Translations under genes and position numbers: made by a program
Notes under the pieces: model-generated
Told to the model about the DNA's origin: nothing
Database searches by the model: none
Seen by the model: the letters and a program-made list of their open reading frames with translations, nothing else
IMG/VR virus record: IMGVR_UViG_2816332589_000001
Coordinates: 1-64,000 of that record
Direction: 5' to 3' (one strand)
Length of the DNA: 64,000 nucleotides
From: a virus
Taxonomy: Duplodnaviria > Caudoviricetes
Part shown: in pieces, positions 1,195 through 33,400 of the stretch
Layout of the letters: every line of letters begins with the position of its first letter
How positions within the stretch are numbered: the stretch's first letter is position 1

Positions 1195-1203
1195 CCAACT
1201 CCG

Positions 1204-2715: not shown

Positions 2716-2727
2716 GAGGAGGGTCCG

Positions 2728-5357: not shown

Positions 5358-5534
5358 GTCCTTAGCCTCCCCGATTCCTGTGTCAGCCGCCAGCGCCCGT
5401 GTGTCGGGTCTGGGCACCGCTGTGTCGGTTCTCGCCACCGCTGTTACCGCCGAGAGCGACGCTGTGCCGAGTCTGGCAGTGACTGTGCATGTTGCAAACC
5501 CCCTTGTGTCAGCAACGAAATATGCCAACTTTTT

Positions 5535-5556
5535 TGCAACTCGACTTTGAGTTGCA
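5535..5556. promoter_or_regulatory. Inverted repeat TGCAACTC-N6-GAGTTGCA, probable XRE operator
   Basis: Perfect 8-bp inverted repeat in an AT-richer divergent promoter region with further TTGCAA/GCAAC motifs. Confidence 0.5.
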
Positions 5557-5776
5557 TCGTAACTTGCCGGTGCAGCACGCTGGTTGAGCTTCGCTGAACG
5601 GGCTACAACAGCCCAAGGCGAGCAGTCCGTACGCATAGGTGACTTCCCCTCTCGCCTCGTGGTTCCTCTTCCCTCGCTGGACTTCGGCCCGGCTGAACGA
5701 TCACGAAGCGGTGAGCGTCAGGGGCGCTATCGCGGGCCTGCGGCAGCGCCCCACAAGAGCGGTGGAGGACTGAACG

Positions 5777-6637
5777 ATGACTGTTGCTGTGCATGGCGAC
5801 CTGCTCACGAGTGAGCACTCGCCCTCGTTGGCCTTCGCCGCGGGCCGTCCCCTCGACTTCATGGCGATGTCGTACCGGCCCACCGGGCACGCGGCCGGCA
5901 CCCCTCCGCTGCCTCGGGTGGATGCCCAAGAGGTGCGGGACATGCGCCATGCCGGAACCGCACGGCTTCGTCGGTGGGGCGTCCGTGACGAGGTGGTCGC
6001 GACCGCGGATTACGTGATCGCCGAGCTGGTCGCCAACGCGTTCCTGCACGGTGCCGTACCGGGCCGCGATGTCGTCCTCACCCTCTCGTCGTACGAGTCG
6101 GCGATCGACGTGGCGGTGACGGACGGGTGCCTGCGCATGCCGCGTCTGCCGCACGCCTCCCCGGGCTGCCCGGACGCCTATGAGAGCGGGCGGGGGCTGC
6201 TGCTCGTACGCAACGAGACGTACCGCTTGGGAGGCACGTGGCGCTTCACCAGGTGGAGCACCGGCAAGGTGGTCACCTGCACCCTGCCCCGCGAGCCTGT
6301 CGGCGACCACCACGACCGGGTGGCCCGGTTCTATGACGCTGCGCGGATCTCCGAGGCGCTGGTGTATCTGGGGCAGCCCGGCCTGTACTACGCCGATCCG
6401 GACAGTTGGCGCCGGGCGCGCAAGGTGGTGTGGGCGTCGCTGGCCAGGCTCGCCCCCTTCGCGGAGCGCCGCCTTCGGGACCTGCCGAAAGCGGACCCCG
6501 CGCGCTGCGAGATCCGCGCCTTCCTCGACTGGGCCCATCGGCTGCGCACCGCCGGCGCCGTCACGACGCATCACCTGCTCGTCGCTGTTTCGCGGCTGCT
6601 CGACCTTGCCGAGGACGCTGCGCGCCGACCGCGATGA
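5777..6637 (+). CDS. HATPase_c (anti-sigma/RsbW-like) ATP-binding protein with C-terminal helical extension
   Basis: ELVANAFLHG, VTDG, ESGRGLLLV, GKVV motifs; divergent from the XRE/DUF397 pair as is typical. Confidence 0.85.
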   Translation: MTVAVHGDLLTSEHSPSLAFAAGRPLDFMAMSYRPTGHAAGTPPLPRVDAQEVRDMRHAGTARLRRWGVRDEVVATADYVIAELVANAFLHGAVPGRDVVLTLSSYESAIDVAVTDGCLRMPRLPHASPGCPDAYESGRGLLLVRNETYRLGGTWRFTRWSTGKVVTCTLPREPVGDHHDRVARFYDAARISEALVYLGQPGLYYADPDSWRRARKVVWASLARLAPFAERRLRDLPKADPARCEIRAFLDWAHRLRTAGAVTTHHLLVAVSRLLDLAEDAARRPR

Positions 6638-7933: not shown

Positions 7934-8413
7934 ATGTCCCCGCTCCCGCCTCCCCGTCCCCGGACCGTCTACTCCGGGGTGCTGCTCAACCCGTGCGATG
8001 CGGTCCTGGTGGTGCACCACAAAGACGCGCCCGGAGGCGTCTACGACCTGCCGGGCGTCACGCCCGACGCAGACGACAACGGCTGGATCGGACTGGCGGC
8101 CGCGATCAAGACCGCCACCGGGCTGGAGGTCACCGTCGGCCGGCTGCTCGCCACCGAGCTGACCCCTGCTGATCCGCAGACCGGCACGCCCGCCTACCGC
8201 CACCGGGTGCGGTACTGCGGCCTGGTACCGCAGCACCGGCGGATCATCCTGGGCGACGGCCTGGATCACTACCGGTGGCTGGCCGCCGATGCGGTGGCCG
8301 AGCACTGCGGGAGCGCCGCACGGCGTATCCAGCACGCCCTGAAGGTGCAGCGCAGCGGGGGCAAGGTCGATCCGCGCAACATCTCGTCCGTCACCTCCGG
8401 CGCGGAGGTGTAG
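7934..8413 (+). CDS. Nudix-fold protein with degenerate Nudix box
   Basis: VLVV...YDLPG...AIKTATGLEVTVGRLL; lacks the REUXEE glutamates. Confidence 0.7.
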   Translation: MSPLPPPRPRTVYSGVLLNPCDAVLVVHHKDAPGGVYDLPGVTPDADDNGWIGLAAAIKTATGLEVTVGRLLATELTPADPQTGTPAYRHRVRYCGLVPQHRRIILGDGLDHYRWLAADAVAEHCGSAARRIQHALKVQRSGGKVDPRNISSVTSGAEV

Positions 8414-8416: not shown

Positions 8417-9037
8417 ATGCCTCTCACGATCTATGAGGAGGACTTCGCGGTGGAAAGCCCGGAGCCGGACCGCCCGCCGCGCTACCGCATCAGCCTGGGC
8501 CAGCCCTCTCACCGTCCGGCGGTCAAGGCCATGGTGAAGGCGCGTAGGGACTGGATGCGCCACCACGGGCTTGTGACCGGCCCGGTCGAGCCCCCGGTAC
8601 TCAGCCACCTGGGAAGCGGGGCCGCCGCTGGGGCGCAGGTCTGGGTCCTGCACGAGGGAACGATGCTGCGGGGCGCCGCGGTCACCTCGATCGCCCCGAC
8701 GGTGAACCTCCAGTGGCATCAGGACCCGGACAGCGAGTCCCTGTGGCTGCACGACATGTATACCGACCCCGACGCCGATGACGCGCCCGGCCGCTGGCTG
8801 ACGTGGTGGCTCAGCCAGCACTACGCCTCGTGTCTGAAGTACGTGTTCACGGCCCTGTGCGATGAGGTGCTGGCCCGGAAGTTCGCGAACCTTCACGCGC
8901 TGGAGCTGCATCCCACGGAGGACGAGTTCCGTCCCTTCCTGCTGCGCCGCCGCACCGGGCCCGCACGGCGCCGCCTGCACACCTACGTGGCGAGCGACGT
9001 GCCGCCGCCGGCCGTTGCCACCCGCCTCAGACCCTGA
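8417..9037 (+). CDS. Hypothetical protein, possibly GNAT-like fold
   Basis: RBS GGAGG; LWLHDMYTDP...GRWL resembles GNAT motif A. Confidence 0.55.
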   Translation: MPLTIYEEDFAVESPEPDRPPRYRISLGQPSHRPAVKAMVKARRDWMRHHGLVTGPVEPPVLSHLGSGAAAGAQVWVLHEGTMLRGAAVTSIAPTVNLQWHQDPDSESLWLHDMYTDPDADDAPGRWLTWWLSQHYASCLKYVFTALCDEVLARKFANLHALELHPTEDEFRPFLLRRRTGPARRRLHTYVASDVPPPAVATRLRP

Positions 9038-15766: not shown

Positions 15767-18193
15767 ATGGCACGCCGCCGCTGGCTGCCCGCCCTCCGTT
15801 CACTGACCACCACCCGCCGCGCAACGGAGGAAAAGACGATCACGTGGACCGGGGGCTACACCTCCACCACGTACGCGGGCACCTCAAACATCTGGTCAAC
15901 CGAGGGCCGCGCCGACGGCTGGGACATCGGACGCGTCGTCACCGAGGGCTACGAGCGGGTCGTCTGGGTCTACAAGGCCATCGACACCATGGGCAAGCAC
16001 GCCTCCCGGCTGCCCCTGGAGATCGGTGTCGGCCTGACCGAGAACGGCGAGTTCGAGGAGGTCATCGAGGACCACCCCCTCCTACGCGTCCTCAACGGCC
16101 GCGCCAACCCGGTCGAGACCGGGCCCCAGTTCCGCAAGCGGCTGTCCGCGCAGATCCTCCTCAGCAAAAGGGGCGCGTTCGTGGAGGTCACCCGCTCAAA
16201 CCGCGGCACCATCACCCGCCTCGATCTCCTGCCCCCGGACCGGGTCATCCCCGTGCCCGACCCGCACGGCGAGTACGTCGCGCACTTCGAGTTCACGACC
16301 ATGCACGGCGAAGTGCGTGAGCTCGACCCCGAGCGGGTCCGCTGGATCAGAGACCCCCACCCGACCGATCCGTTCTCCGGCGTCACCCCGCTGGAGGCCG
16401 CGGGCATCAGCGTCGAACTGGACCACCTGAGCCGCCTGTACAACGTCAGTTTCATCAAGAACGACGCGCGCCCCGGCGGCATCGTCGCCGTGGACACCTC
16501 TTCGCTGAACGAACGCGAGATGGACCGGCTGGAGTCGCGGTTCCTGCCCGGCAGCGAGTTCGCCGGCCATGTGTCCGTCATTGGCTCTGGCGACATGAAG
16601 TACGTGGACTTGGCCGCCCGCCCCCGGGAGATGGCGTACGAGCACGCCGCAACGAACGCCAAGATCGAGATCCTGGGCGCCTTCGGCGTGCCCGAGTCCG
16701 TGACCGGCAACGCGTCCGGCCGGACCTTCGACAACGCCGAGCAAGAGGAATACGGGTTCTGGATTCACACCGAGCTGCCGCACCTGGAGCTGATCAGCAA
16801 CGCCTTCGCCTCCGACCTCGGCGGTCTCGACCGTGCGATCCGCTTCGACACCTCCACCGTCGAAGCCCTGGAACTGCCGCGCCGTAAGCGTCGCACCGAG
16901 GCCCGCGAGGAATGGAACGCCGGGCTGATCAGCGCCGACGAATACCGGCGCCGCGCCGGGCTGCCTGCCTTCGACAATCCTCACACCCGAGCCCTGTGGA
17001 TCAGCCCGCAGAAGGCGCCCGTCCCGGCCCGGCCCGAGGACGCCGCCGCGCTCGGCATCCAGGGGGCCGCAGGCCCCGGTGCGCCGGGCGGGCAGCTCCC
17101 GCCCGTGCCGCCGCCTGGTGCCGACCCCAACGCCCCGATCCCCGAGGCGGACACGGTCGGCGGAGACGCCGCGGCCGTCGTGGCGCAGGCCCGGACGGAA
17201 GGCGGCCAGCCGGCCGGGCCCGGCGCCGCCGCGGCGGCAGTCGCCGACGCGCGCACCACCAAGGAGACCGGCGGACCGGGCGCTGCTGCCGCAGCCGTCA
17301 CGGCCGCGCGTGAGGAAGACGAGGAGACCGGCCCCGGCGAGGCGGCAGAGGCCGTGGCCGAGGCCCGCGGCCTCCAGGTGAAGGCCCTGCCCGCCGGTAC
17401 AAGCGACACCTTCGAGGTCACCGACAACGACTTCGACCAGGCACAACAGGCCGTGTCCACCGCGCTCGCGCCGATCTTCGACCGGGAAGAGGGCGTGATC
17501 ATCGCCCGCCTGCGGTCCCCGAAGACCCGCAAGGGCACCCCGTTCTGGAAGGACGACGGCCCCACCGACACCCGCGGCGGAACCGGCACGCTCGACACGG
17601 ACCGCATCGTCGGAACAGACCGGTGGTTGGAGGAGATCGACGCCACACTCGCCCGGGTCCTGGCCGGCGTCGCGCGCACCGCAGCGCACCGCACGGCCGC
17701 GGCGTTCGGTGCTTCCGAGCCGCCCGCCCGCGCCTCCGGGCCCACGGCAGCCGCCGTACTCGATGCGGTGGCCGCCGCCGAGGAGGTTGCCCGCGGCTTC
17801 CTCGCGTCCCTGGCCATGCTCCTCGACCAGGCGCAGGCCGTCACCACCGACGTGGACGACCTGGTCGCGCTCGTGCGCAGCACGTTCACCGACCTCGGCG
17901 CCCAGGCCGCCGCGAACATCGCCGAGGCCACCGCGGTTGCCACCGTCAACGGCGCCACCGAGGCGACCGCCGCAGCGATCGGCCCCGGCATCGTGCGCAC
18001 CTGGACCACCCGGCGTGACGACCACGTGCGGGCCGTACACGCCGCCGTGGAAGGCGTCACCCTGCCCGTCGGCCAACCGTACGACGTGGACGGCTTCCCC
18101 ATGCGCTTCCCCGGCGACCAACTCGCCCCCATCCACCTGACCGTCAACTGCCGCTGCCGACTGCGCTACACAACTGAAGGAGACACGCCGTGA
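15767..18193 (+). CDS. Phage portal protein fused to a Mu gpF-like minor head domain
   Basis: HK97-like portal motifs (HPLLRVLN..NP, G.TPLEAA, NDARPGG, I.GAFGVP); C-terminal WTTRRDDHVRAVH...NCRC. Confidence 0.9.
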   Translation: MARRRWLPALRSLTTTRRATEEKTITWTGGYTSTTYAGTSNIWSTEGRADGWDIGRVVTEGYERVVWVYKAIDTMGKHASRLPLEIGVGLTENGEFEEVIEDHPLLRVLNGRANPVETGPQFRKRLSAQILLSKRGAFVEVTRSNRGTITRLDLLPPDRVIPVPDPHGEYVAHFEFTTMHGEVRELDPERVRWIRDPHPTDPFSGVTPLEAAGISVELDHLSRLYNVSFIKNDARPGGIVAVDTSSLNEREMDRLESRFLPGSEFAGHVSVIGSGDMKYVDLAARPREMAYEHAATNAKIEILGAFGVPESVTGNASGRTFDNAEQEEYGFWIHTELPHLELISNAFASDLGGLDRAIRFDTSTVEALELPRRKRRTEAREEWNAGLISADEYRRRAGLPAFDNPHTRALWISPQKAPVPARPEDAAALGIQGAAGPGAPGGQLPPVPPPGADPNAPIPEADTVGGDAAAVVAQARTEGGQPAGPGAAAAAVADARTTKETGGPGAAAAAVTAAREEDEETGPGEAAEAVAEARGLQVKALPAGTSDTFEVTDNDFDQAQQAVSTALAPIFDREEGVIIARLRSPKTRKGTPFWKDDGPTDTRGGTGTLDTDRIVGTDRWLEEIDATLARVLAGVARTAAHRTAAAFGASEPPARASGPTAAAVLDAVAAAEEVARGFLASLAMLLDQAQAVTTDVDDLVALVRSTFTDLGAQAAANIAEATAVATVNGATEATAAAIGPGIVRTWTTRRDDHVRAVHAAVEGVTLPVGQPYDVDGFPMRFPGDQLAPIHLTVNCRCRLRYTTEGDTP

Positions 18194-18452: not shown

Positions 18453-18480
18453 GACGCTAACCACTCCGGGTGTGCATGGT
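18453..18480 (+). promoter_or_regulatory. Late-promoter motif GACGCTA-N15-CATGGT
   Basis: Conserved copy; ATG 18488 7 nt downstream. Confidence 0.7.
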
Positions 18481-18487
18481 CCGCTCC

Positions 18488-21400
18488 ATGCAGATCACGA
18501 ACGCCGCTGACCGCCTCGCATCCCGCCTCGAAGCCAAGGCCCGCCGCCCCTGGAACCCCGATCTGCACCCCCGGGACAGCAAGGGCAGGTTCATCGAAAC
18601 CGGCGGCATCGCCCGCTTGTGGGGCGGCGGCATGGCCCGCGTTCTGCGCGCCCTCGGCGGCCGGGACGTGCTCGTAGAGAACCTGAGCACCCACGAACGC
18701 TCCACCATCAACGGCTCTCGCCTGACCATGGTGGCCCGCCCGGACGGCACCGCGCCGACCCGCAGCAAGAAGAAGGTCCGCGACGAAGACGAGCGGCGCC
18801 AAGCCGACGGCCGCCGCGGAACCGGCCGCGACGACGAGGACGCTGGCGACCACGGCGACACCCCCGACGAGCCTCACGACACGGACGACCAGGGCAACGC
18901 CATCGGCGAGGACCGCGACGGTGAGGACCATGGCGCCGGCCCGGAGCCCGAGGACGACGAGCCCGAGGAAGATCCGCAGCCCAAGCCGTCACGCCGCCGC
19001 GACCCCAACCGGCGCTTCAAGACGCTGGAGGACGTACGCGCCCACTGGGCCAGCGGCAAGCTGCGCACCTTCACGCAGGACGAGAAGAAACAGGACAGCC
19101 ACAACAAGTTCATGGCCGAGCTGATGGACAAGCTCGACAAGCCCCAGCTCTCCCGCAACGGCCACTTCGTCGTCGGCCGATTGACGATCCACGGCTCAGA
19201 CGGTCGCGAGCACACCGGCTGGGGCGTCATGCACACCGACACCGGCATCCGCCTCACCCTCGCCGACCGCAAGGCCGAAGCCACCGAGTTCGCCAACCGC
19301 ATGGAGAGCGTACGTATCGGTGGCGAGCCGATCGACTGGAACAACCCGGAGTCGTTTGACCGGCTCAACACCCCCGAGGGCCGCTCCGTGGCCGGACGCC
19401 TGGCTGCCGAGGCGCAGGCCGCATTCGCCGAGCGCGCGAAGAAGAAGCGCGAGGGCGCCACTGCCCGCACCAAGCCCGCCACGCCCAGTACCCCGGAGCA
19501 GCGCGCTGCCCAGCAGGTCGCCGGCCGTACGGGCGCCCCGGCCGCGAATGTCGCCGTCGGTCACATCGGCGCGCCGGACAAGGGAAAGTCCTTCGGTGAT
19601 GAGCGGGGTCGCCCCCGAAACGACGGCGAACTGCGCGAATTCTGGCAGCAGGGCGGCGCCCAGGGAGCTGGCGGCAAGGCCCAAGCCGAGATGAAGAAGC
19701 TGGCCAACGACCCGAACGTCGTCCTGCACCTGGCAGACCACCGCGGCTTCGTCGTCGTGGAGCAGCGCCGCCGCAACAAGCCGACCCGGTACGAGCTGCG
19801 GACGGTGGGAACCGCCGCGACGCTGTCCAAGCTCGGACGTGGGGGCATTCACACCTACGGCAGCTTCGATGACCCTGAGACCGCCAACCGGTTCGCCCTC
19901 TACCTCGGGAGCAACCTGCGGGACCGGGACGGCCGCACGGTGGACTGGGGCAGCCCGTCCCTGTCATCCGATCTATTCCGATTCCGGGACAAGGAAGGGC
20001 AGCCCGCCGGACAGGCCATCTGGCAGCTCGCGGGCGAGTTCGACCGGCAGCGCGGCGTCCACGACAGCCCGGCCGCGCGCTTCAGTCGTCCTCACGGCGG
20101 GCGGGACGACCGGGACGAGGAGCACCAGCAGGACCCGCAGACCGCGCCCGAGACCCCGGATACGGGCATCCCGGGCGAAGATGTGACCCCGCGGCCGGCC
20201 GACGGCCAGCAGCGCGACGAGCAGGAGGAGCACAGCAGTGGAGAGCGGCTACAAGGCGCTGGTGAAGGCGTACTGGGAGACGTACCGGCCGACGGCGCTG
20301 GCCGAGCTGGCGGAGACGACGCCGCCGGAGACGTTCTTCGCGCAGATGGCGGCGGAGATCGAGGAGCAGATCGCGGACAGGAGGGACGACTTCCGGGAGG
20401 AGATGGAGCCGGGGACGGACTTCCGGGACGCGATGGCGTCGATCAACATGGCGACGATGAGGGCGAGGGAAGCGGTCCTGCACGAGCTGGTGTACGGCCT
20501 GAAGAAGGAGCCGGGCACGGAGGACAGGGAGATGCCCAGGGTGAGCCTGCCGAAGATCGCAGCCGGGTAGCTTTCGGCAGCGACGACGAGGAGCGTCGTG
20601 CCCCGCAGTACCAGCCGCCGGAGGACGGCCGCAGCCTCGTCCCGAGCGGGGTCCGCGCCCGGGTCAAGGCGAACATCGCCGCGATCGAGGTACTGCGGCG
20701 CCTTGAGGACGAGAACCGGCCGGCCACGGCCGCCGAGCAGGAGACCTTGGCCCGCTGGTCCGGCTGGGGCGCCACGCCGCAGGTCTTCGTGGACGAGCCC
20801 AAGGAGGAGTTCGTCCCGCTCCAGGCCCGTCTGCGGGAGCTGCTGAGCGACGCCGAGTGGGACGCGGCCAAGGAGAACACCCTCAACGCCCACTACACCG
20901 ACCCCGCGATCACCCGCGAGGTTTGGAAGGCCGTCGAGGAACTGGGCTTCGACGGCGGCAACGTCCTGGAGCCGGGCTCCGGCAGCGGCAACTTCATCGG
21001 GTACGCGCCCGAGTCCGCGCACATGACCGGCGTCGAGCTGGACCCGATCACCGCAGGTATCAGCAAGGCCCTGTACCCGCACGCCGACATCCGCAACGAA
21101 GGCTTCGAGAAGACCCGCGCCGCCGACGGCACCTTCGACATGGCCATCGGCAACGTCCCGTTCGGCGACTACCAGGTCGTGGATCTCCGCCACAACAAGG
21201 GCGGCCACAACATCCACAACCACTTCATCCTGAAGTCGCTGGACCTGACCCGCCCCGGCGGCCTGGTCGCCGTCGTCACCTCCCGATTCACCATGGACGG
21301 CTCGACGCCGCGCGCCGAGGACGCCCGTATGGAGATGGCGCGCAAGGCCGATCTCGTCGGCGCGGTGCGCCTGCCCACCGGCGCCCACCGGCGCACCGCC

Positions 21401-24400
21401 GGCACCGATGTGGTCACCGACTTGCTCATTTTCCGGCGCCGCGAGAAGGACAAGGAGTTCACCTCCGGCCGGCTGCGCAACGGGCAGATCAAGATGCCCG
21501 ATCAGCGCACGAAGGATGACCCGCCGGTGTGGGTGCACTCGGCCCGCGTCACCGACCTGCCGGGCCAGGACCCCGACGACGCCAACCAGCCGGACGCGCC
21601 CCAGGTCTACGTCAACCCGTACTTCCTGACGAACCCGAACAACGTGCTCGGCGAGATGGCTGTCGGCCACGGCATGTACGGGCCGGGGGAACTGCGCGTG
21701 GACGGCGACGGCAACCTCGACACCTCCCTCAGCAAAGCCCTGAAGAAGATCGTCAAGCGCGCCCGTGACGCTGGCCTGTCGTACACCCCGGACGATGGCG
21801 AGCGGCGCCGCCCCGAGCTGCTGCCCGAGGGCTCCGACCGTATCGACGGGCACGTGCAGGTCTCCCCCGACGGCACCTTCACCCAGGTCCGCGACGGCGT
21901 GATCGTGCCCTTCGATGTGCCCCGCAAGCAGGTAGAGGAGGCCACCCAGCTCCTTGGGCTGCGCGACGCGATGAAGGCCCTGATCGCCGAGGAGTCCCGG
22001 CCGGACGCCGACGAGGCCCTGATCGAGACGCTGCGCGGCGACCTGAAGGCCCGCTACGAGGCGTACCACGCGAAGTTCGGCTCCCTGAATCGGTTCGATT
22101 GGGCCACCCGCAAGGCCGCCGACCCGGAGACCGGCGAGCAGGTCGATAAGGCGTACCGGAAGCGGCCGCCGATGGGCGGCCTGATCACCCGTGACCCGAC
22201 GATGGCCGTCGTTCTGTCCCTGGACACCTACGACGGCACCACCGGCACGAGCACCCCGGCCGCGATCTTCTCCAAGCGGCAGTCGCGGCACCGCACCATC
22301 GCCGACCGCGCCAGCAGCCCTGAGGACGCCATGGCGGTCGTCCTGGAGCAGAAGGGCAGCCTCGACACCAACACCCTCGCCCGGGTCATGGGCGTCACTC
22401 CGCAGGTCGCCCGGGAGAAGCTGCTCGCGGCCCGCTCCACCGACCCGGAGACCGGTCACGAGTACCCGCTGGTGTTCGAGCCGCACAACGGCGGCGACCT
22501 CATCCCGGCCGCCGATTACCTCTCCGGCAACGTCCGCGCCCGTCTGGAGGAGGCGCAGGCCCTCGCTGGTGAGGACCCCCGCTTCGACATCAACGTCAAG
22601 CAGCTCGAAGCGGTCCTCCCGCCGGACATCTCCCCCGGCGAGATCGACGCGCCGATGGGCGCCTCGTGGCTCGGCGGCGAAATCGTCCAGTCCTTCCTGC
22701 GCGAAAAGCTCAACACCAACACGGTCCGCGTCAGCTACGCCGGCGGCTCCCTGTGGAAGGTGGACGCCCCCGACGCCACCAAGAAGTCGCGGGCTGCCAC
22801 CGAAGTCTGGGGCACCGAGGACTTCCCCGCGATCAAGCTCGCCGAAACGATCCTGACCAACGGCCGCATCCGCGTCACCTTCAAGGACGACGAAGGCAAG
22901 ACGTACGTCGATGAGGACGCCACCGCCGCCGCCCAGGCCAAGGCCGAGGAACTGAAGGAAGAGTTCCAGGACTGGCTGTGGGCCTCCCCGGCGCGGTCCG
23001 AGCAGATCAAGAAGCTCTACAACAACACCCACAACAACCTGGCGCTGCGCTCGTACGACGGGCAGCGCCGGACGATGCCGGGCCTCGCGGACTGGTTCAA
23101 GCCCCACCCCCACCAGCACGCGGCCGTCGCCCGGATGGTCAACGAGCCCGCGGTGCTGCTCGCGCACGAGGTCGGGGCCGGCAAGACCGCCGAAATGACC
23201 ATGGGCGTGATGGAGCTGCGGCGCCTCGGCCTGATCAACAAAGCCGCAATCGTCGTCCCCAACCACATGTTGCAGCAGTTCCACGACGAGTTCGCGGAGC
23301 TGTACCCGGAGTCCGCCGCGCAGGGCCGCATCCTCTCCGCGTCCAGCGAAGACCTTCAGGGCCGCAAGCGCCGCGAGTTCATCGCCCGGGTCGCCACCGG
23401 CGACTACGACGCCGTGATCCTCACGCAGAACGCGTTCGAGTCCATCCCGATGCGCCCCGAGGTGCAGCTCGACTACATCAAGCGCGAGAAGAAGCACCTC
23501 GAAGAGGCCCTGCGCCGGCAGAAGGAGCAGGACGAGCTGGAGGAGCCCGGGAAGCGCCGCGACTCCCGGATGGTCAAGGAGCTCCAGAAGCGGCTCAAGC
23601 AGCTCGAAGCGAAGATCGCCGCCAAGATCGAAACGTCCAAGGACATGGCCGGCCTGTACTTCGAGGACACCGGCATCGACTACGTCGTGGTGGACGAAGC
23701 CCACCACTACAAGAACCTGACCACGAACTCCAGCATCCCCGGCGCCGCGATCGAGGGCGCGAACCGCGCCTCCGACCTCGACATGAAGCTGGAGTACCTG
23801 CGCAAGAACACCAAATCCGGCCGCGTCGTCACCTTCGCCACCGCCACCCCCATCTCCAACAGCGTGACCGAGGCGCACACCATGCTGCGCTACCTGCGGC
23901 CCGACCTGCTGGAAGCCGCCAAGGTCCGCAACTTCGACGAGTTCGCCTCCACCTACGGAAAGGTCGTCTCCGGCGTCGAGCTGGCCGCGGACGGCTCCGG
24001 CTTCAAGGAAGTCTCCCGGTTCGCGGCGTTCCGGAACATGCCGGAACTGCTGCGCATCTGGAAAACCGTCGCCGACGTGAAGACCTCCGAGGACCTGGCG
24101 GAGTACCTCGACACCCCGGACATCTCCGGTGGCAAGGCCATCACCATCTCCGTCGAGCCGACGGAGCAGATGCTCGCCTACCAGGAAGAGCTGGCCCGCC
24201 GAGCCCGCGATGTCAAGCAGGGCGACGTAGACCCCCGCGACGACAACATGCTGAAGATCAGCAGCGACGGGCGGAAGGTTTCCCTCGACCCGCGGATGGT
24301 CGGCCTGGACGAGCAGGGCAACAAGCTGCCCCGCGCCGCCGAGAACATCGCCCGGATCTACGAGGAGACCAAGGACGCGGTCTACCCGACCTCGAAGACC

Positions 24401-27400
24401 GACCCGACACCGCACGAGACGCCCGGCGGCCTCCAGATCGTGTTCCTCGACATGGGCACGCCCAAGGACCCGGGCAAGGGTAAAAAGAAGGGCAAGAGCG
24501 ACGGCCCGGCCAGCGTCGAGGAACTGGGCGACTCTCCGTTCCCGGCGTATCAGGAGCTGAAGGAGCTCCTGATCGCCCAGGGCGTCCCGGCCGAGAAGAT
24601 ACGTTTCATCCACGAGGCGAAGAACGACGCGGAGAAGGCCCGCCTGTTCGCCGACGCCCGCAACGGCAAGATCGCCGTGCTCGTCGGCAGCACGAGCAAA
24701 ATGGGCACCGGAACGAACGTGCAGCTGCGCGCCACGGCCCTGCACCACCTGGATTGCCCGTGGCGGCCGGCCGACCTTGAGCAGCGAAACGGCCGCATCA
24801 TCCGCCAGGGCAACGCCAATCCCGAGGTCGCGATCTTCCAGTACGTCACCGAGCAGTCCTTCGATGGCTTCTCGTGGCAGACCGTCGCCCGCAAGGCAAA
24901 GTTCATTCGCCAGCTCATGAAGGGCAACCTCACCGACCGCACCGTCGAGGACATCCCCGATGGCGTGTTCAACGCCGAGCAGGTCACCGCCATCTCCACC
25001 GGCAACCCGTACCTGCTGGAGCAGGCGAACGTGAAGGCGTCCCTCGCCGTCCTGAAGCGGAAGCTGAAGGGCCACCTTCGCGCGGTCGAGGGCTACAAGA
25101 CCACGATCCACGCCGCCGAGAAGCTGCGCGAGGACACTGACAAGTTCGTCGCCCAGCTCCAAGACGTGATCTCGCGCCGCAAGAACACCCGCGGCGATGC
25201 CTTCAACGCCACCATCGGCAAGAACGACTTCACCAAGCGAGGCGAGGCGGCGAAGGCCCTCGCCACCGCCGCGCAGGCAGTACTCCGTCAGGGCAAGGCC
25301 GACCCGTACCGCTCCGGCGGCCACCAGAAGGTCGTCATCGGCCGAGTCGGCAACATCGAGGTCACCGCCCAGTACCGCACCGCATGGGGCGACTACGGCC
25401 GTGTCCACCTCGTAGACATCGCCTTCCCGGACATTCCCCGCAGCCGGCACTCCTACCAGGAAGACGACCTGAAGAAGGACAGCACCCTTCCCATCACACG
25501 GCTGGAGGACTCGCTGGCCGACGTGGACAAGGCGATCGTCCGCGCGGAAAGCCGACTGCGCCAGGAGGAGCGCGCGGCCGAGACCGCCCGAGCGCGCGTG
25601 GACCGCCCCTTCGAGCAGGCCGAGGAACTGGAGGCGGCCGAGCGGCGCGCCAAGCTCGTCGGCGCGCTGATCCGCGAGCAGGGCAAGCAGACCACCAGCG
25701 AGGACGCCGGCCGGGCGAAGCGGGCCCGCCTGGAGAGCCTGGAGCACCAGCTCCGCGAAGCCCGCATTGCCGCGGGCGAGGATTCCGGCGACGTGGACGA
25801 CCCGGCCGCCGCGCAGGACACCGACCTCCTGCCCCGCACCCCGGCCCCGCCGTCCATCACCACGGACGAGAAGGGCCGCCCGCGCGTCCTGTGGCCGGAC
25901 GCCGAGGCGAAGAAGGCCGCCAAGGAGCGCGAAAAGCAGGCGAAGCTCCAGCGCGCCCGCGAGGAGCGCGGGGAGACCACCCTCAACCCGGAGCAGGTGC
26001 GATCGGAGCTCGACTCCCTGCGCGAGGACGCCCCAGAGGCCCCGGAGCAGCACGACGACAGTTCCGTTCCCGAGGAGAAGCCCGAGGCCCCGGACGCCCC
26101 AGCGCCGACGGACAAGCCGGATACGGACACCGGCCAGGCCCAAGACGGGGAGGGCGAGGAGACCACCACCCTCACCCCGGAGCGCGTGCGCGCCGATCTG
26201 GACTCCATCACGCCCGAGGACAGAGACGACGCCAAGACGGAGGACCGTACGGACTCGGAGGGCACCGACGCCGCTCCCAACGCGGACTCCGTACAGGACC
26301 ATGACCAGGCCGACGCCGAGCCGGCCGACACCTCCTCTGGGCAGGAGGAGACCACCCCGGCCGCAGATGCATCCCAGCCCGCGGACAACGACGAGTCCGA
26401 AGCGGAAGACGAGGCCCCGGCCGGAGACTTCCCGGCCCCGGGCGATCAGGTGAACAGCCCCGACGGGTTGGGCGAAGTCATGGCCGTCCACGGCGACGCC
26501 GTCCTCGTCCGTGCCGAGCGCGGCACCCGCTCACACGCCCTGAAGGACGTAACCCGCCCTGACGGCAGCCCCTTCGGCGGCGACCGTACGGAGGCCCACA
26601 AGGAGCGGCAGAACGCCGAGAAGATAGCGCAGGCCGCCACCCACGAGGGCGCCGAGCTGTCCAGCGGCAACCGGCTGCGCGACCTCGACATGGAGGCCGG
26701 CCACGGCACCATCGTGGACCGCGACGGCAACACAGTGGGCTGGGTCCGCGCCCGCATCGGCGACGACGGACGGCGCTACTGGTGGGGCCAGGACGCCGAC
26801 GGCGGCGCCCCCGAAGACATGCAGTGGCACGAGGAACTGCCTGCCCAAGCAGGCGCAGCGCCGATCCGCGCCGCGTCCATCGTCCGCGATGGACTCGACT
26901 CCCTCCGCGCGAAGTACACCGGGCGGATGGACGCGAACGGCAGGCCGGAGCAGGAGAAGCGCAAGCCGGTCACGCCAGACCGTGCCATCACCGAGATGAC
27001 GCTCACCCCGGCCCAGGTGCGGGAGCTGAGCAAACTCACCCTGTCCGGCGAATACGCGGACGGTACGCCGATCGACACCCTTCCGTGGAACCCTGGTCAC
27101 CGACGGTACAGTCCGTTCTCGGCGCAGGCCGGTGCACTGGCCACCGCCGCGCGTGAAGCCGCCGCGCAGCAGGACGAGAGCACGCCGGAGGGACGCCGCA
27201 ACAAGAAGGTGCTGATCGGCGCTGCCCGCAAGATGGAGTTCCAGCAGTACGACTCCGCCCGCCGCGCCGCGACCGTGCCCCCGCCCGGCGAGCCGGACGC
27301 GTACGACAAGCCGTACGAGCCCCGTGCCGAGGAACCGGACACCGACGCGCCCGATCGGGACGCGCCGGACCCAGCATCGGAGCAGACCGCCCCGGACACC

Positions 27401-30400
27401 GGCCGCGGCACCTCGGACGCGCCCAGCGAACCGCAGGAGACGGACGCGGAGCCGGCCGACGACTCCGAAGTCCTCGACCCCGACCAAGCCCAGGTCGGCG
27501 ACTACATCCGTGCGGAGACGCAGAACACCCGGGGCAACGCTGACACGCGCGAGGGATACCTCCTTGCCGCGCCGAAGAAGGTCACCGCGACCCGCGACCG
27601 GCAGCGCATCAAGGCGTGGCGCCTCTACATCGGCAAGGAAGGCGAGGAGCCGTCTCCCCGCAACGCCGTCACCATCCTGCCGGACGAGAAGATCGAACGC
27701 CTGACCGCACCCGAGCCGACCCCGGAGGCGGATCACGACACCGAATCCACCGACTCGCGTACACGCGACAGCGCGCCGACCGCCGACGCCCCAGAGGACA
27801 GCGCGGCAACGGGCAGCCCCGCTGAAGGTGATGATGTCCCGAGCGGCCAGTCGCCGTTGAGCTTCCCCAACGGCGGCACTCGGGAAGAGGAAGTCCGGAA
27901 GTGGGCCGGTGTCTGGGCAGGGCCCCAGCCGGACGGGCTGAGTAACGTCTACCTCGACCGGGTGCTAGGCGCCCATGACGGTCAGTTGCCCTCCGATCCG
28001 TGGGAGACACGCTTCTGGATCACCTCCGCATTCGAGGTCGATCCCATGGCTCAGTACGACGAGAACCTTCGGCACAGCCTTGACCAGGTGCCGGAGGAGG
28101 CCCGCCAGTACCTCACTGGTCATGCAGATGAACTGCGTTCCTTCGTGCAGCAGCTCGGGGACGACCTCCGGACAGACATCCGCTCCGTCCTAGTGGACAA
28201 CATCGCTACCCGCGCCGGTCGGAAGAAGGCTCGGGAGCAGGTCGCCCGGATGTACAACGAGGCGGCGGAAAAGGCACGCAAGGCTGTTCGGGAGCACATC
28301 GAGCGCGTCCGCGCCGACGCTGCTGAGCACGGCCTGTCAGAGCAGCAGGCTGAGGGCTTTCTCATCAACGTCGCCGGAGGCGACAACCCTGATCAGATGT
28401 CGTACGGCGTGAAAGGCGAGTTCCCCGAGGCCGTACGCCCGCTGTACGCCGCTCGTTTGGACGGCGAAGCCTATCGGGCAGCCTTCGGCGGGTGGGCCAC
28501 GCAGGACGACACCAACTCCTGGGCTGGGTTCCACCACTCCAACGTCCGGCGGGCCAGGATGAACGTGCGTCTGACCCCCGTAGCCGATCCCCGGGCCGCG
28601 GCGGGTGAGCTGAAGATCGGCGAAGCCGAGCTGCCCAAGGGCATGAGGTGGGCGCGAGCCTCCGAACTGCGCGAAGGCGACATCTTCCACTACGTGCGAG
28701 TGCCCCGGCGCGGAACGGCCGACGCTTTCGACGGGATGGAGCCGCCGCAGTACGTCATCCACACACACCGCGATGGCCTTGAAGGCGCTCTCCGCACCGT
28801 AGGACTGGACGGCTCACACCACGACCCGGACACCGACGGTCACGTGATCATCGTTGAGAACCCGGAGCCAGCGGTGCGCAAGCGGGCCAGGCACCGGGCG
28901 CGCACGGACGTGTTCACGAACTGGGAGCTTCGGAAAGACGAAGAGGCGTATGCGGCTCAGTCCCGCCTTCCCTCACATCCGGAAGGCGAGACCGTTGACC
29001 CGGAGACGTTGGCGAAGGGCGAACTGGTGCGCCTTCGTGGCACCAACCAGTGGGGCGGGCTCGGGCAGTTCGAGGGCTACCTGCATGAGGCCCCTCAGCG
29101 CACACGTTTCTGGCGTCAGGGCAAGGAGACCGAGGGCTGGAAGGTGACCTTGGCCTCCAACCCCGAACAGCTTCAGAACCCGTACGCGACGGGCTGGGAC
29201 TACTACATCGCCGCAGATGACAACGAGAACTGGGTGGAGCGCATCGACTCGATGCAGGCCCGGAGCGCAAGCGTGCCCCTGAGCAGGCGTGGCGACGTGG
29301 ACGCGCCCGAAGAGCACGATCGGCCGCATGAGCACGACGAACAGCAGCCCGAAGGCCAGCCCCACACCGACATTGCGGACGAGGGTGACGCGTCCGCGCC
29401 CGACTCCACCAACGACGATGACCACGGCCAAGAGCGCCGTGAGGAGGAGGAACGCCAGGGCGGGGATGACGACGACCGCAGGGGCAGGGGGACGCGTCGC
29501 CGTTCGCGAGACCGAGACGGGGACAACGAACCGGACGGCGAGGATGGCCCCGGCCTGCCGGACGCCGGCGCGCCCACACCGAACGACGACGATCACGAGA
29601 ATGAGGACGACGGCGACGCTGAGCGGCCCGACGCCAACGATCAGGATCACGATGACCGTGACGAGCGGGGCCGCCGTAAGCGGCGGCGCCGTCGCGACCG
29701 CGACCGGGACGGGCGGGACGGTGGAGCACCGGACGGTGGCCTCCCGCACATGCCTGGTCTGCCCCACGTGCCCGACCTGGGAAGCAATCAGGGCGGTGAT
29801 GACAGCCAAGCGGGGAACCGCACGCGCAAGCCGGACCGGCTCGCCCAGACGAAGGACCGGTACCGCAACGGCAGCACGCCGACGCCACCGGGCGCCGATC
29901 CGGAGGGGCACGCCGCCTACCTGCGCCGACTCGCTGACAACGACACCCTCACCCTGTCCCCCGGCGGCGGACTCATCACCTGGTCGGACGACGACGGCCG
30001 CACCTGGCAGTTCGGCCACGCCACCAGCGGCGTGCACCTGGCCGGCTGGGAAGCCAACGGCGAGGAGATCGGCGGCCGGGACGGCGCCGTACGCCTGGCA
30101 GGCGAGTATGAGCGGATGCTGGGCGAGGACGGCGCCCCCATCGACTGGACGCAGCCCCAGCTCGACGCTGACGCGCTACGGCAGTGGCGCGACTCTCGGG
30201 GTGAGCTGCTGACCGACGCCATCGCGTTCGTCCGTGACTCCGTCATCCGCGAGCACCAGCGGGACAGCGACCGGAATCGGCTGAACAGCACCCCCACTAC
30301 GGACATTGCGGCCCCAGACACGGAACCCACGGTCGGCACAGGCGCTACGGACACGCCGAACCCCAACCGCCGTCCGCGCTCCGAAGCGGCCGGCCAGGAC

Positions 30401-33400
30401 ACCGACTCCTCGGCGGGACAGGCCGATGAGACGCAGGCCGGAACGGGTGGTGCACCCGGCACACCGGCCAGCACACCGGCCAGCGGACCGGACACCGCTG
30501 CACCTGGTACCGCTGGCAGTGAGAACGACGAGGGCCGTGTCGGGGACGGCGCGCCGTTCGGCGATCCCGAGCTGGACCTCCGGCCCTTCATGTCGAACAC
30601 CGGTGACGACTGGGAGGACCGCATCATCACCGACGAAGCGACGATCCGCCGCTTCGGCAGCCTCGAACGCATGCGGGAACTCGCGTCCCGTGCCACGGTC
30701 CCCAGCCCGCAGCTTCCCACCGACCATGGAGCCTCGGAGGTCTGGCTGAACGGCCGCCTGATCGGCTCCGTCAACGACGAGGACAGCTACAACCGCACGC
30801 TCTACCCCGAGTCGTACAAGGGCATGTGGCATGCGAAGCCGGAGTTCTTCCCGACCTCCCGCGAGCCTGTGTTCCGCAGCCGCGAAGCGGCCATCGCCGA
30901 AGTCGTCCTTCGCGCGCTGAAGGCCGGCCCGCCCGACCCCACCAAGGTCACCGGCGAGATGGCCGACGACTTCAAGCTTTGGCGCGACATGTTCTTCCCC
31001 AAGAACGTGGACGGCCAGGACTTCGACGATCAGGACCGCGAGCGGTACGAGGCGCTGGACAAGCTCGTGACAGAGCTGGCAGCTGGCCGTACCCCGAGCG
31101 GGAACCTGGCCGCCGACCTCGGCCATGCCGTGGACGAACTCGGCTGGCTGGCCAGCCGGTACCGGAAGGGCAAGGACGAGGAGCACACCCACATCGACCC
31201 GTCCACGCTCGCCCGGCACTTCGCCAAAACCCTGGATCACCTGCGTCCGGAGGACCCACGGGCCGCCCACCACCGTGAACTTCAGTACCGGGCCGCCATG
31301 CAGGCCATTCGGGACCTGGACACGGACGACGTCCTCGACCACTCCGAGCAGGTGTCGATCGCGGCCCTCCGCGACGGCGATGTGGTCATCAAGCTGGAGG
31401 GCCGACGCGCCACCGGCTCCACCACCAGGCGGACCGGGTACCTGCGTGGTGCTCCGAAGAAGGTCACGATTCGCAGCGGCGGCGAGAAGATCCGCGCGTA
31501 CCGCGTCCGTGTCGGCGACACGCCGTGGGACGACGGCGGGCGCGAGGAGAAGCTGACCGTCCCAATCGACACCGTGGTGCACCGCCGCGCCAGCCTCGAC
31601 CAGGTCGAGATCCGTGAGGATCAGCAGGACTACGGTCTCCGCGTCGGCCAGGAGGCACCCGAGCACGTCTACAACCCGGAGACGGACGGGATCGACTACG
31701 AGGGCCGCGCCCGCGCTCAGGCCCAGCAGGCTGACGGCCTGCGCAGTACGGACGACGCCGACACCGACAACGCGCCCGAGGCTGCCGCTGATACTGACCA
31801 CGCACCGGCGAAGCCGGAACCGAACACGGAAACCCGCGAGCCCGCCTCGGCCGACGAACCCGAGACCGCCCCGGCGCCGGCGCAGGCCGCCCCGAAGCTC
31901 AAGAACCGGCCGACGGACAAGCCGACCAGGAAGGACCAGCCTGCTCCAGCTCCCCGCAAGGCGCCGGAGCCGGTTGGCGGCCGGCCCGCGGAATGGGTCA
32001 AGATCCACGACCTCTCACACGGCGACCTGGTGCGCGTGGAGGGAACCACCAAGCAAGGCACCCCGCGCACCCTGGCCGGGTACGTCGTGGACGGCCCGAA
32101 GCAGATCCCGGCAACTCGCAACCACCGTACGCGAGACATGTACCGGGTTCTGATCGCGGACACCCCCAACGGCAAGGGCGCTCCGGTCTGGGTCATGCCC
32201 GACGCAGCGGCGGCCCGCGCCACCCGAGACAACTCCGCCCAGGTCGAAGGCGCCCCGCATACCGGCGCGGACGCCGATGTCCTCGCCGGGCGCATCGCCG
32301 ACACCGTCCCCACCGACCGCAACGGCAACGGCATCTTCCCCGGCTCGGTTGTCACCGACGCCGAAGGCAATGACGGGGTGGTTACCGGCGCAAGCGCCTC
32401 CAGCGTCCGCGCACGGTTCGGCGACAGCCGCAGCGAAGAAGACCACTCCCCCACCTCGCTGCACGTCACCGACGGCGGCGCGGCCCGGCCCACCGGCTGG
32501 ACGGGGGACGGCCACCGGGTACGGACCGGCAACGTCGTCGGCGAGAAGGACGGCACCATGCTCGGAACCGTCGAGGAGGTGGACGGCGACACCGCGACCG
32601 TCGCCATCCCGGGCGGCATGTCCGAGCACCCGATCGGGGACCTGCGTGTCATCGGCGACACCAACAACGGCAACGACGGCAACAAGGTCACCACGGTTGA
32701 ACCGGCGGACGCTGGCGAAGTGAAGGAAGGCGACGTGCTCGTGCGCGACACCCCCGAGGGGCCGCGCACCGCCCGGATCACCGGCCGCAGCGACGACGGC
32801 GAACAGATCAACCTCGACCTGACGGACACCACCACCGGCGAGACCGACACCATGTCCGTCCCGTCCAGCGGCGGTGTACTGCGCGCCCGCGACGCCGACG
32901 GCAACGCCCCCGACCTCGGCCCGGAGGACGGGCCGTCCGACAACGCCGAGATCACCAGCCACGAACCAGCCCCCGCGGTAGACCCCGTCGCCGGCCCGAC
33001 CGTGAACCCGCAGCTTTCCCCCGAGGAACGCGACGCCATCGCCGACCGGGGCCAGACCGCCACCGCGGACCCCGATGCCGAGCAGGCCGCTGCCCGCATC
33101 GCCAACGACCTGCCGGTCACTCCCGAGCAGGCGTCCGCACTCGCTGACGAACTGCGAGAGGGCGCCGACTCGGACACGGCGGATGGCCGGGCCGCGCGGC
33201 GGGCCGCCGACCACCTGGACGCCGCGGCCGGTAACGAACCCGACGGCGAAACGTCGAACGACCGCCCGGAGCCCGGCACGGTCGGCACCGTGGGCGTCGG
33301 CGACACGATCGCACTGCCCGACGAGTTCACCCCGGACACCCTGACCGCCTACCGCGTGGTGGACATCCAGGACGGCCCCGGCGGCGTACGGAGCCTGACC

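Follow-up and report, generated by a model that had tools for sequence, protein, structure and literature searches.

The giant gene and its nested reading frame

The window, by which we mean the whole stretch of 64,000 nucleotides that was analyzed, comes from a Streptomyces phage-plasmid and carries on its plus strand an open reading frame of 5641 codons (18470–35395; 16.9 kb). Directly 5′ of this giant gene lies a portal protein gene (15767–18193, plus strand; PHROGs phrog_2662 portal, E 4.2e-80), whose C-terminal part also matches head-morphogenesis families; at the equivalent position of a relative, plasmid NZ_CP107821 of Streptomyces sp. NBC_00536, the annotation likewise reads ‘phage portal protein’. 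Genes for a head protease and the major head protein flank the giant gene on its other side. From its N-terminus onward, the giant protein comprises an N-terminal region, an apparently overprinted linker, a methylase-like region, a SNF2/ResIII helicase, and some 3500 residues without a family match. The N-terminal region (18470–20092, plus strand), where the coding signal lies in frame 0, is found only in the phage-plasmid clade, standing in place of a leader of ~27 residues in plasmid relatives, and has no Pfam or PHROGs match. It is followed by a segment predicted to be disordered from AlphaFold pLDDT (giant residues 542–700; 20093–20569, plus strand) and then, starting at the stop codon of the nested gene, by a conserved block that leads into the methyltransferase-like region (20570–21349, plus strand). 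An alignment of 16 sequences over this block (A5) has a mean column identity of 51% and the conserved pattern …PSG.RARVKANIAAIEVLRRL…RPAT…WSGWGA…, and it preserves EPG.G.G.F and NVPF(G), which we take to be the motifs for SAM binding and catalysis in N6-adenine methylases. Of the Pfam methylase families, Eco57I gives the one match to the giant protein (residues 877–960, E 2.5e-4, 21.6 bits against a cut-off of 25.3), with Methyltransf_23 at 16.3 bits against a cut-off of 27. Further downstream (23099–24811, plus strand), Pfam identifies a superfamily-2 helicase core of the SNF2/ResIII type together with Helicase_C, each above its cut-off (ResIII 35.1 bits, SNF2-rel_dom 33.8 bits, Helicase_C 34.6 bits).

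Within the giant gene, in its +1 frame and on the same strand, lies a second open reading frame of 110 codons with its own GTG start and TAG stop (20238–20570), as the first-pass annotation had described when it proposed a complete gene nested out of frame. The ribosome-binding site named there is also present, as a Shine-Dalgarno-like GGAGGAG (20224–20230, plus strand) placed 7 nt 5′ of the GTG. The same annotation had the nested frame ending just before the methyltransferase domain; it does end at the conserved block, but that block begins ~175 residues upstream of the Eco57I match. Open frames as such carry little weight at this locus, because high-GC DNA is full of long spurious ones: within 17 kb here there are 73 of at least 80 aa, among them one antisense frame of 2080 aa. 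Since open alternative frames are meaningless alone, the case for the nested gene rests instead on a flip in codon signal and on comparative data. Between 20240 and 20570, position 3 of the nested frame, equivalent to position 1 of the giant codons, has a GC of 0.96–1.00, which is the genome’s usual codon pattern and agrees with the normal high-GC3 codons described earlier for the nested gene, whereas GC at giant position 3 falls to 0.36–0.46, compared with 0.84–0.98 in the flanks. This dip in giant-frame GC3 is confined to 20210–20600, no other 150-nt window of the 16.9-kb frame falling below 0.68, and the stretch 20238–20570 is the one place in the giant frame where codon-position GC switches to the +1 frame. 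Read in frame 0, the overlap (giant residues 590–700) is rich in Gly, Asp, Arg and Ala, with 31% Gly, 14% Asp and 10% Arg, just 10% hydrophobic residues, and a GC3 of ~0.4, and it contains no stop codon, which bears out the earlier description of atypical giant-frame codons in a frame that nonetheless stays open. That openness is uninformative in the window itself, because the nested frame has a GC3 of 0.98 and the giant frame remains open in 100% of synonymous shuffles (P(open) 1.0).

The giant frame shows a clear coding signal on either side of the small gene and no stop across it, and ribosomes must therefore traverse the small gene in frame 0. Structurally, an AlphaFold model of a giant-protein fragment has pLDDT below 50 at model residues 43–196, reaches 89 from model residue 201 onward (giant residue 700), and stays at 81–97 through model residues 201–300 (giant residues 700–799), so that the predicted disorder stops exactly at the stop codon of the small gene. 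Evolutionarily, a crude Nei-Gojobori estimate applied to the overlapping frames of the Streptomyces clade gives the small frame a dN/dS of 0.62 and the giant frame one of 1.21, compared with 0.21 for the methylase beside them; dS is 0.24 in the small gene and 0.40 in the flank. The frame-specific comparison that the first-pass annotation had called for thus favors the +1 frame, pointing to purifying selection on the small frame that is only moderate within the Streptomyces clade.

The two-frame layout in plasmids, ICE-like loci and phage-plasmids

The same arrangement recurs in related mobile elements. The window’s clade keeps the same frames in nine of nine loci, including a Nocardia plasmid at 41% identity, and the small frame is +1 relative to the large frame at every one of 30 loci from plasmids, ICE-like loci and phage-plasmids (the frames of L010, L011 and L048 (G651) were left out of the analysis, and L017 (G361) is without long flanks). 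Upstream of the start, GGAGG or AGGAG is kept before the GTG in the 8 Streptomyces loci, and each of the 30 loci has a purine-rich GGAG, GAGG or AGGA at −8 to −24. Of the 30 small genes, 29 are spanned from end to end by an open large frame, and the remaining one (L028) has a stop in that frame. Among 17 diverse representatives, 16 are open where 5.1 would be expected under synonymous shuffling (Poisson-binomial P 1.3e-13, a value that is not exact because the representatives share ancestry), and one locus of 47% GC, from the phylum search, has 0 stops in the large frame and 11 in the third frame. From these counts, we conclude that selection keeps the large frame clear of stops where it crosses the small gene. 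In five further loci (L034b, L044, L030, L045 and L043) the large frame is only 186–767 codons long; together with L028, these show that the large gene can decay while the small one persists, and the small protein therefore need not depend on the large one.

In its short versions, on plasmids and ICEs, the large gene opens with a conserved ATG and a leader of ~27 residues; the small gene in +1 comes next, and after it a conserved motif and the methylase. The leader, MA.RKKQIDGQLS(F/L)..LW, is in the large frame directly 5′ of the small ATG and is found as a strict motif in 11 of 30 loci (0 of 10 in the window’s clade), and in the plasmid relatives no start codon lies between the small stop and the motif FRP..Q.DLAPSG.RARV.AN. 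Because these short versions of the large gene already hold the overlap, it must be far older than the giant gene of the window. The nested pair is kept across many genera of Actinomycetota, and from this retention of the two-frame layout in related mobile elements of the phylum it follows that both frames are very probably translated.

The small protein and its kinship with TnpV

The nested product is an acidic protein of 110 aa (pI 4.7), and acidity is a feature of its relatives as well, with a pI of 4.1–5.1 in 28 of 30 small proteins. Its AlphaFold model (pLDDT 94.7, pTM 0.84) has four helices, forming an all-helical bundle with an ordered C-terminal tail that bears a conserved EPGTE motif. 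A profile search, of the kind that the first-pass annotation had suggested, found homologues in abundance (852 clusters at E ≤ 1e-3, of which 240 reach E ≤ 1e-10), and the best 150 matches were each 85–345 aa long. With respect to the family itself, the description ‘TnpV-like’ holds as a distant kinship but not on the protein’s own score: the window’s protein (P0001) aligns with the TnpV profile PF14198 over residues 36–85 (profile positions 64–111) at 11.8 bits (E 0.24), below the cut-off of 27 bits, and a whole-genome scan of the element with PF14198 gave no match at E ≤ 1. Among 93 relatives (alignment A4), by comparison, 19 match PF14198 at E ≤ 0.01 (best 4.6e-7), with every other family matched by at most one member. 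Relatives of P0089, itself a match of the small-protein profile at E 1e-14, are labelled ‘TnpV protein’ by PGAP in plasmids of Arthrobacter, Paenarthrobacter, Kocuria and Sinomonas, and TnpV occurs in 19% of the members of an Atlas neighbor cluster. On this sequence evidence, the small protein is a divergent, distant relative of TnpV, its membership being transitive through members of its family.

Outside this family, few similarities were found. The small-protein model gave no PDB match in Foldseek at E ≤ 1e-3, a wide VIA-align search peaked at Z 5.5, which is inside the noise for helical proteins, and a sequence profile search of the PDB returned 0 matches at E ≤ 1; NCBIfam gave no meaningful match, and PHROGs and a tblastn search of cultured phages gave none. 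In plasmids, tblastn with the small protein matched 2 records only; the family member P0028 had plasmid matches confined to Actinomycetota, and neither it nor P0019 had relatives in viral contigs. The likeness to TnpV extends to general character, in that both are small proteins of ~110 residues borne by mobile elements. The tnpV gene of Tn4451 presumably stands alone, whereas here the small gene lies inside a large one. As to function, a role for TnpV of Tn4451 in excision was only postulated, from its likeness to lambda Xis, in PMC3158075; an Xis-like structure was not among the structural matches listed for the all-helical small-protein model.

Dual coding, possible roles and alternative readings

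Taken together, and judging by computation, we put at roughly 80% the probability that positions 20238–20570 are translated in two frames, with a frame-0 spacer overprinted on an older small gene. The true dual coding proposed in the first-pass annotation gains support from the codon flip, the conserved start and ribosome-binding site, the family, the fold, the coding flanks and the excess openness of the large frame, and its suggestion that the giant protein reads through an older small gene as a linker agrees with the low GC3 and higher dN/dS of the giant frame and with the predicted disorder. In frame 0, ribosomes coming from the 5′ end of the giant gene would traverse the overlap and yield a flexible, low-complexity spacer of ~110 residues, which would link the phage-plasmid-specific N-terminal region with the methylase-helicase body and whose sequence would be free of constraint except for the avoidance of stop codons; its richness in Gly, Arg and Asp would arise because the Glu, Asp and Ala codons of the small gene are read one base out of register. 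In frame +1, independent initiation at GTG 20238, behind the internal GGAGGAG, would produce the acidic, helical, TnpV-like protein of 110 aa. Of the two readings, that of the small gene would be the older, the spacer having been overprinted on it long before the present element arose.

Functionally, the giant protein resembles DarB of phage P1 and other polyvalent proteins in its giant multidomain build, in its methylase-like and SNF2/ResIII helicase parts, and in the position of its gene in a head module beside the portal gene of a portal-terminase phage, although it differs from them in its length of 5641 residues, mostly without a family match, and in a methylase match that lies below the Pfam cut-off. 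A head-module context is taken, in the relevant part of PMC5512222, to indicate packaging and delivery with DNA; the main text of that paper contains neither ‘TnpV’ nor ‘overlapping’. From the position of its gene between portal and head genes, the giant protein is probably packaged in the virion and may serve in anti-restriction, such that this DarB-like protein would accompany the DNA, here probably inside the capsid. Since the two products are invariably co-encoded, the small protein probably works with the large enzyme, and this co-encoding, with its size and acidity, suggests that it may be a partner of the DarB-like protein, possibly as a chaperone, adaptor or regulator. The first-pass annotation had likewise thought of a chaperone or partner, and also of an inhibitor. 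Secretion and packaging chaperones whose genes lie next to that of their client, such as those of type III secretion, offer a parallel in that a small acidic protein, largely helical in the one member modelled, is always encoded with one large client, here one that probably accompanies the DNA; they share no sequence or structural similarity with the small protein and serve as an analogy for the hypothesis, not as a claim of membership.

A more specific and rather doubtful extension is that the overlap is itself functional, with the acidic TnpV-like protein binding the nascent large protein co-translationally as an in-cis chaperone, adaptor or brake until loading. Such binding may occur because the small protein and the spacer come from the same stretch of mRNA, and the binding site could be the Gly/Arg-rich spacer or the conserved block that follows it. 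An escort of this kind would hold the giant methylase-helicase inactive and export-competent in the donor up to its loading, which would be into the capsid here and into the conjugation channel in the case of plasmids. If the idea were true, the general role of TnpV would lie not in transposition but in escorting the antirestriction enzymes that accompany DNA.

Other readings of the same locus accept less of this arrangement. One, which we regard as improbable, holds that the small gene is real while the frame-0 read-through has no function, the working enzyme being made from an internal start 3′ of the small gene, with the N-terminal region and spacer either superfluous or released by processing as a product in its own right. 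PGAP models in plasmids do begin a ‘helicase-related protein’ 96–330 nt past the TnpV stop, and polyvalent proteins are often proteolytically processed, as described in the relevant part of PMC5512222. Against this, the annotated starts discard those 96–330 nt of large-frame coding sequence, whose conservation spans genera and whose GC3 is high right from the small stop; the first possible large-frame start falls after the conserved motif in several loci; the window has no stop that would terminate the N-terminal region; and the absence of large-frame stops across the small gene is a selected feature.

A still less probable reading invokes programmed frameshifting, in which a −1 shift near the small stop would join the TnpV-like sequence to the methylase-helicase as its N-terminal module or, in the window’s clade, a +1 shift would append it to the N-terminal region as a C-terminal extension, with the openness of frame 0 being incidental. 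The identical frame relation in 30 of 30 loci would fit, as would the conserved large-frame sequence, which lacks its own start codon and begins directly behind the small stop, and the SD-like motif 5′ of the small start might in principle promote shifting. Yet none of the 30 loci has an in-phase X_XXY_YYZ heptamer at 60 nt or less from the small stop, and in 21 of them the whole small gene is free of one. Frameshifting would also need no open large frame over the small gene, where openness in fact exceeds expectation, and it leaves the conserved large-frame ATG and leader upstream unexplained. Moreover, no in-frame fusion of the small domain to a large protein occurs in the 30 loci or among the best 150 profile matches (≤345 aa), and in a weak search for a fused small domain among longer proteins none of 781 candidates scored. 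Lastly, that the pattern is an artefact, whether paired compensating frameshifts (sequencing errors or mutations) in a giant gene whose real product would carry the TnpV-like domain in frame or a chance +1 frame of a high-GC genome, is hardly credible: long spurious frames do abound in such DNA, and local paired indels do occur, since a relative’s small protein (P0005) holds a short stretch resembling the giant frame, but independent assemblies from many genera share the same frames and the small gene’s own start and stop, no in-frame version was found among the best 150 profile matches or in the weak search of longer proteins, and coding signal, family and fold all fall on the +1 frame.

Translation in two frames, our preferred reading, has counterparts in Rz1 inside Rz of phage lambda and comS inside srfAB of Bacillus subtilis, small genes nested out of frame from which both products of each pair are made. 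As in those pairs, the larger gene wholly encloses, on the same strand and in its +1 frame, a small gene that is complete and has its own start; unlike them, the host-frame segment here is an apparently unconstrained and predicted disordered spacer, not a working domain, and the pair, its two products predicted from sequence, spans many Actinomycetota genera on plasmids, ICE-like loci and phage-plasmids. Among the TnpV papers listed, none treats nesting in its title or abstract; the literature on nested or alternative-frame genes with methyltransferases, helicases and conjugative elements yielded only a review of frameshifting, and no paper with a description of this nesting was found. The locus would add a deeply conserved bacterial and phage case to a very short list of complete out-of-frame nested genes, one in which the host frame appears to put the overlap to use as a predicted disordered spacer. 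It would also link the uncharacterized TnpV family to giant methylase-helicases sent along with mobile-element DNA, offering a concrete candidate partner for a protein whose sole proposed role is a guess from the 1990s. Where genomic GC is high, a GC3 close to 100% keeps the −1 frame of a gene clear of stops, and read-through fusions may therefore evolve easily and escape notice. In public records, the small gene is either lost inside a CDS called ‘helicase’ or annotated as TnpV at the cost of a truncated large gene, a systematic annotation error for which the two-frame nesting would account.

The giant gene and its setting

The record, of which the window is the first 64 kb, is 136,928 bp long with direct terminal repeats; GC content is 69.7%. 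A phage-type head and tail module was recognized in the window through PHROGs matches, comprising a portal gene (15767-18193, E 4e-80), a head protease (37568-39862), a major head protein (39967-41340), a tape measure (51113-55180) and minor tail proteins. Since its close relatives, Streptomyces replicons and contigs of ~130-138 kb, include complete circular plasmids, and the window holds this module, the element is a phage-plasmid. A single ORF of 5641 codons (18470..35395, + strand) fills the space between the portal and protease genes, and its product contains supra-threshold ResIII/SNF2 and Helicase_C domains and a sub-threshold Eco57I-type methylase match (residues 877-960); neither its first 590 nor its last ~3500 residues have a Pfam match.

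A further set of PHROGs matches, to ‘head morphogenesis’ families (phrog_2468, phrog_3517), falls on the last ~130 residues of the portal protein and suggests that a MuF-like part is fused to it, immediately before the giant gene. Within the 764-aa product of 37568-39862, residues ~32-392 match head maturation protease families and residues 132-371 match RNA-ligase PHROGs; the combination is odd and may be an effect of PHROG naming. Between the major head protein and the tail genes, an unusual location for a nuclease, lies a 536-aa ORF (41319-42929) with a strong match to an exonuclease PHROG (phrog_284, E 3e-56).

Two reading frames across the overlap

The first-pass annotation had described an out-of-frame gene nested in the giant ORF behind a GGAGGAG motif, and a Gly/Asp/Arg-rich but open giant frame over it, and both descriptions hold. 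The nested ORF (20238..20570, + strand) comprises 110 codons in the +1 frame of the giant ORF, from a GTG start to a TAG stop, with GGAGGAG (20224-20230, +) 7 nt before the start. The presence of an ORF is by itself weak evidence, as 73 ORFs of at least 80 aa occur in these 17 kb; one, an antisense ORF of 2080 codons opposite the giant gene (20249-26491, − strand), is a by-product of high GC3 and shows that ORF length counts for nothing as evidence in this genome. Across 20240-20570, though, GC at giant-frame position 1 (nested position 3) is 0.96-1.00, and at giant-frame position 3 it is 0.36-0.46 versus 0.84-0.98 in the flanks, a flip absent from every other 150-nt window of the 16.9-kb giant ORF. 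The giant-frame reading of the overlap is 31% Gly, 14% Asp and 10% Arg because GAG, GAC and GCG codons read one base early become GGA, CGA, GAT and similar codons; hydrophobic residues make up 10% of it, versus 28% of the small protein.

The coding signal of the giant frame is clear up to ~20200 and again from 20571, and no stop interrupts that frame anywhere in 18470-35395, so a ribosome translating the N-terminal region must cross the small gene in frame 0. The same three-frame pattern was found in all nine loci of this clade (the window, five Streptomyces genome contigs or plasmids, two IMG/VR contigs and a Nocardia plasmid at 41% identity). In an AlphaFold model of giant residues 500-900, built on a shallow 10-sequence alignment, residues 542-695 are predicted to lack secondary structure (pLDDT ~30), whereas pLDDT stands at 89 from residue 700, whose codon coincides with the end of the small gene.

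Selection was compared among eight Streptomyces sequences by a crude Nei-Gojobori calculation. The dN/dS of 0.62 in the small frame versus 1.21 in the giant frame (third frame, 1.02; adjoining methylase region, 0.21) identifies the small frame as the constrained reading and agrees with moderate purifying selection there, and no constraint on giant-frame amino acids over the overlap is evident. The small gene also has a lower dS than its flank (0.24 versus 0.40), suggesting some added constraint at synonymous sites. The overlap of two reading frames is shown computationally, and each frame has separate evidence that it is used, in line with the dual coding first proposed: the small frame in its codon flip and its protein family and fold, the giant frame in its stop-free coding flanks and its openness.

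Distribution of the layout and probable translation through the small gene

In profile searches, 13 of 401 genomes in a class-level sample and 7 of 401 in a phylum-level sample carried the small gene (one of the seven was left out of further analysis), and a tblastn search with one member matched 57 plasmids, including those of Arthrobacter, Streptomyces, Micromonospora and Kocuria. Thirty small genes with flanks were compared: eight from Streptomyces phage-plasmid-type loci, one from the Nocardia plasmid, 12 from 11 sampled genomes and nine from plasmids. All 30 lie in the +1 frame of the neighbouring large frame, which is open over the whole small gene in 29; the sole exception (locus L028) has one stop. 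When synonymous codons were permuted within each small gene, the probability of an open large frame ranged from 0.003 to 1.0, the window itself scoring 1.0. Among 15 representatives with <50% pairwise identity, 14 were open versus 5.0 expected (P 5e-10), and with two further members, their identity to the rest judged by eye, 16 of 17 versus 5.1 (P 1.3e-13), P values that are approximate because the representatives share ancestry. One added member, a 47%-GC locus, has no stop in the large frame and 11 in the third frame. GC content does not account for this openness, and the layout is both old and widespread.

In plasmid and ICE-type relatives, the large ORFs (944-2854 codons) open just 73-340 nt upstream of the small start, with a cross-genus leader, MA.RKKQIDGQLS(F/L)..LW…ERD (strict motif in 11 of 30 loci), that reads directly into the small gene’s ATG. 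A second conserved block, (R)FRP..Q.DLAPSG.(R/K)AR(V).AN..A, starts at the first codons past the small stop; in these relatives the stretch from that stop to the block contains no ATG, GTG or TTG, and in several loci the next possible large-frame start falls downstream of the block. On this sequence evidence, the upstream leader and the start-less block imply that translation of the large protein must begin upstream and pass through the small gene. The one difference in the window’s clade is that a ~590-residue N-terminal region stands where these relatives have the short leader.

If ribosomes shifted from the small frame to the large one, the constant frame relation and the lack of a start after the small stop would be explained. 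However, all 30 loci lack an in-phase slippery heptamer within 60 nt of that stop (in 21 the whole small gene has none), no in-frame fusion was found in these loci, among the best 150 profile matches or in a weak search of longer proteins, and frameshifting leaves both the upstream leader and the selected openness of the large frame unexplained. An enzyme made from an internal start downstream of the small gene conflicts with the conserved, start-less sequence past the small stop. The layout recurs in many independent assemblies, which excludes paired sequencing errors.

Further variation was seen among the relatives. In the short leader of plasmid-type large proteins, immediately before the small ATG, a conserved large-frame motif GQLS(L/F)..LW occurs at L038:6925-7000, L039:1129-1204 and in L029, L031, L032, L037, L043 and L046; in L052 (G103:C16) and L053 (G049:C2) it reads QPDLFS(I/L)(L/F)D. 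This leader motif, which is absent from the window’s clade, may resemble the beta-sliding-clamp-binding consensus, QL(S/D)LF. In L052 and L053 the nested ORF extends to ~200-300 codons, only its middle part matching the TnpV-like profile, and the overprinted large-frame spacer (~250 residues) has lengthened in step. Locus L034 (G199:C7) carries tandem TnpV-like genes (8001-8324 and 8614-8886) upstream of one large frame of at least 2854 codons; just the second lies within that frame, the first lying in a 186-codon open frame with a very Arg-rich reading.

The small protein, its possible role and its annotation

The small frame codes for a real protein. Near homologues of 100-116 aa are called as genes in Streptomyces genomes. 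Among cluster representatives at 50% identity, a 14-sequence profile matched 852 at E<=1e-3, of which 240 reached E<=1e-10; the 150 best of the 852 are all 85-345 aa long, with the domain mostly N-terminal. The GTG start and an AGGAGG-type motif are kept in the eight Streptomyces loci; other clades have an ATG start with GGAG, GAGG or AGGA upstream. The proteins are acidic (pI 4.1-5.1 in 28 of 30), and an AlphaFold model from a 93-sequence alignment (pLDDT 94.7, pTM 0.84) predicts four helices (4-16, 18-25, 30-52, 62-86) followed by an ordered tail with a near-invariant EPGTE motif. Structure and PDB sequence searches found no solved structure resembling the model.

The proposal that the product is TnpV-like stood for the family and fell short for the protein itself, which scores 11.8 bits against Pfam TnpV (cut-off 27). 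Because TnpV matches reach E<=0.01 in 19 of 93 family members (best 4.6e-7) and relatives in Arthrobacter, Paenarthrobacter, Kocuria and Sinomonas carry the name ‘TnpV protein’ in NCBI pipeline annotation, it is best labelled a divergent TnpV-like protein, the relationship being distant; no other family was matched by more than one of the 93. For TnpV of Tn4451, an excision-helper role was postulated from likeness to lambda Xis (PMC3158075), the sole printed TnpV function met in the literature searched. A plasmid ‘TnpV’ locus is among the upregulated genes of a Paenarthrobacter transcriptome (PMC12927932); RNA cannot tell the two frames apart.

Two homologues are irregular. In the 109-aa P0005, a second copy in Streptomyces sp. 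ARC14, ~15 residues (‘...PSWRRRRRGDVLRAD...’) are the giant-frame text of the same DNA, implying a local indel pair that would disturb the giant frame too; the copy may be decaying. In the 345-aa P0022, a segment like a repeat unit of the window’s giant N-terminal region shares one frame with a TnpV-like domain, the two being separated by ~130 Pro/Arg-rich residues that look off-frame; this called protein reflects either a genuine frame variant linking the N-domain to TnpV or an indel in a short contig.

As a rule, the frame whose codon usage is typical of the genome is the ancestral one. The normal codon usage and constrained amino acids of the small gene, against a GC3 of ~0.4 and dN/dS of ~1 in the large frame, support the earlier proposal that an older small gene is read through, the large frame probably having been overprinted later. 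Such read-through would evolve easily, since stops cannot arise in the -1 frame of a gene whose GC3 is near 1. Speculatively, the small acidic protein could act with the large enzyme as a chaperone, adaptor or regulator, and its retention in some loci where the large frame is short or broken counts against an obligatory partnership. The head-module position of the large gene, together with the published view of such polyvalent proteins as packaged and delivered with DNA (PMC5512222), suggests that the client would be a DarB-like antirestriction protein. The main text of that paper contains neither ‘TnpV’ nor ‘overlapping’, and the literature searched yielded no description of a TnpV-like gene nested in a methylase-helicase gene.

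In older or long-ORF models the small gene is absorbed into the large one, as in the pTC2 ‘putative helicase’ (1129-6618), a Micromonospora ‘helicase’ and a Streptomyces ‘DEAD/DEAH box helicase family protein’. PGAP plasmid models call the ‘TnpV protein’ and place the start of a ‘helicase-related protein’ 96-330 nt past its stop, so that conserved sequence is lost from the large gene model.
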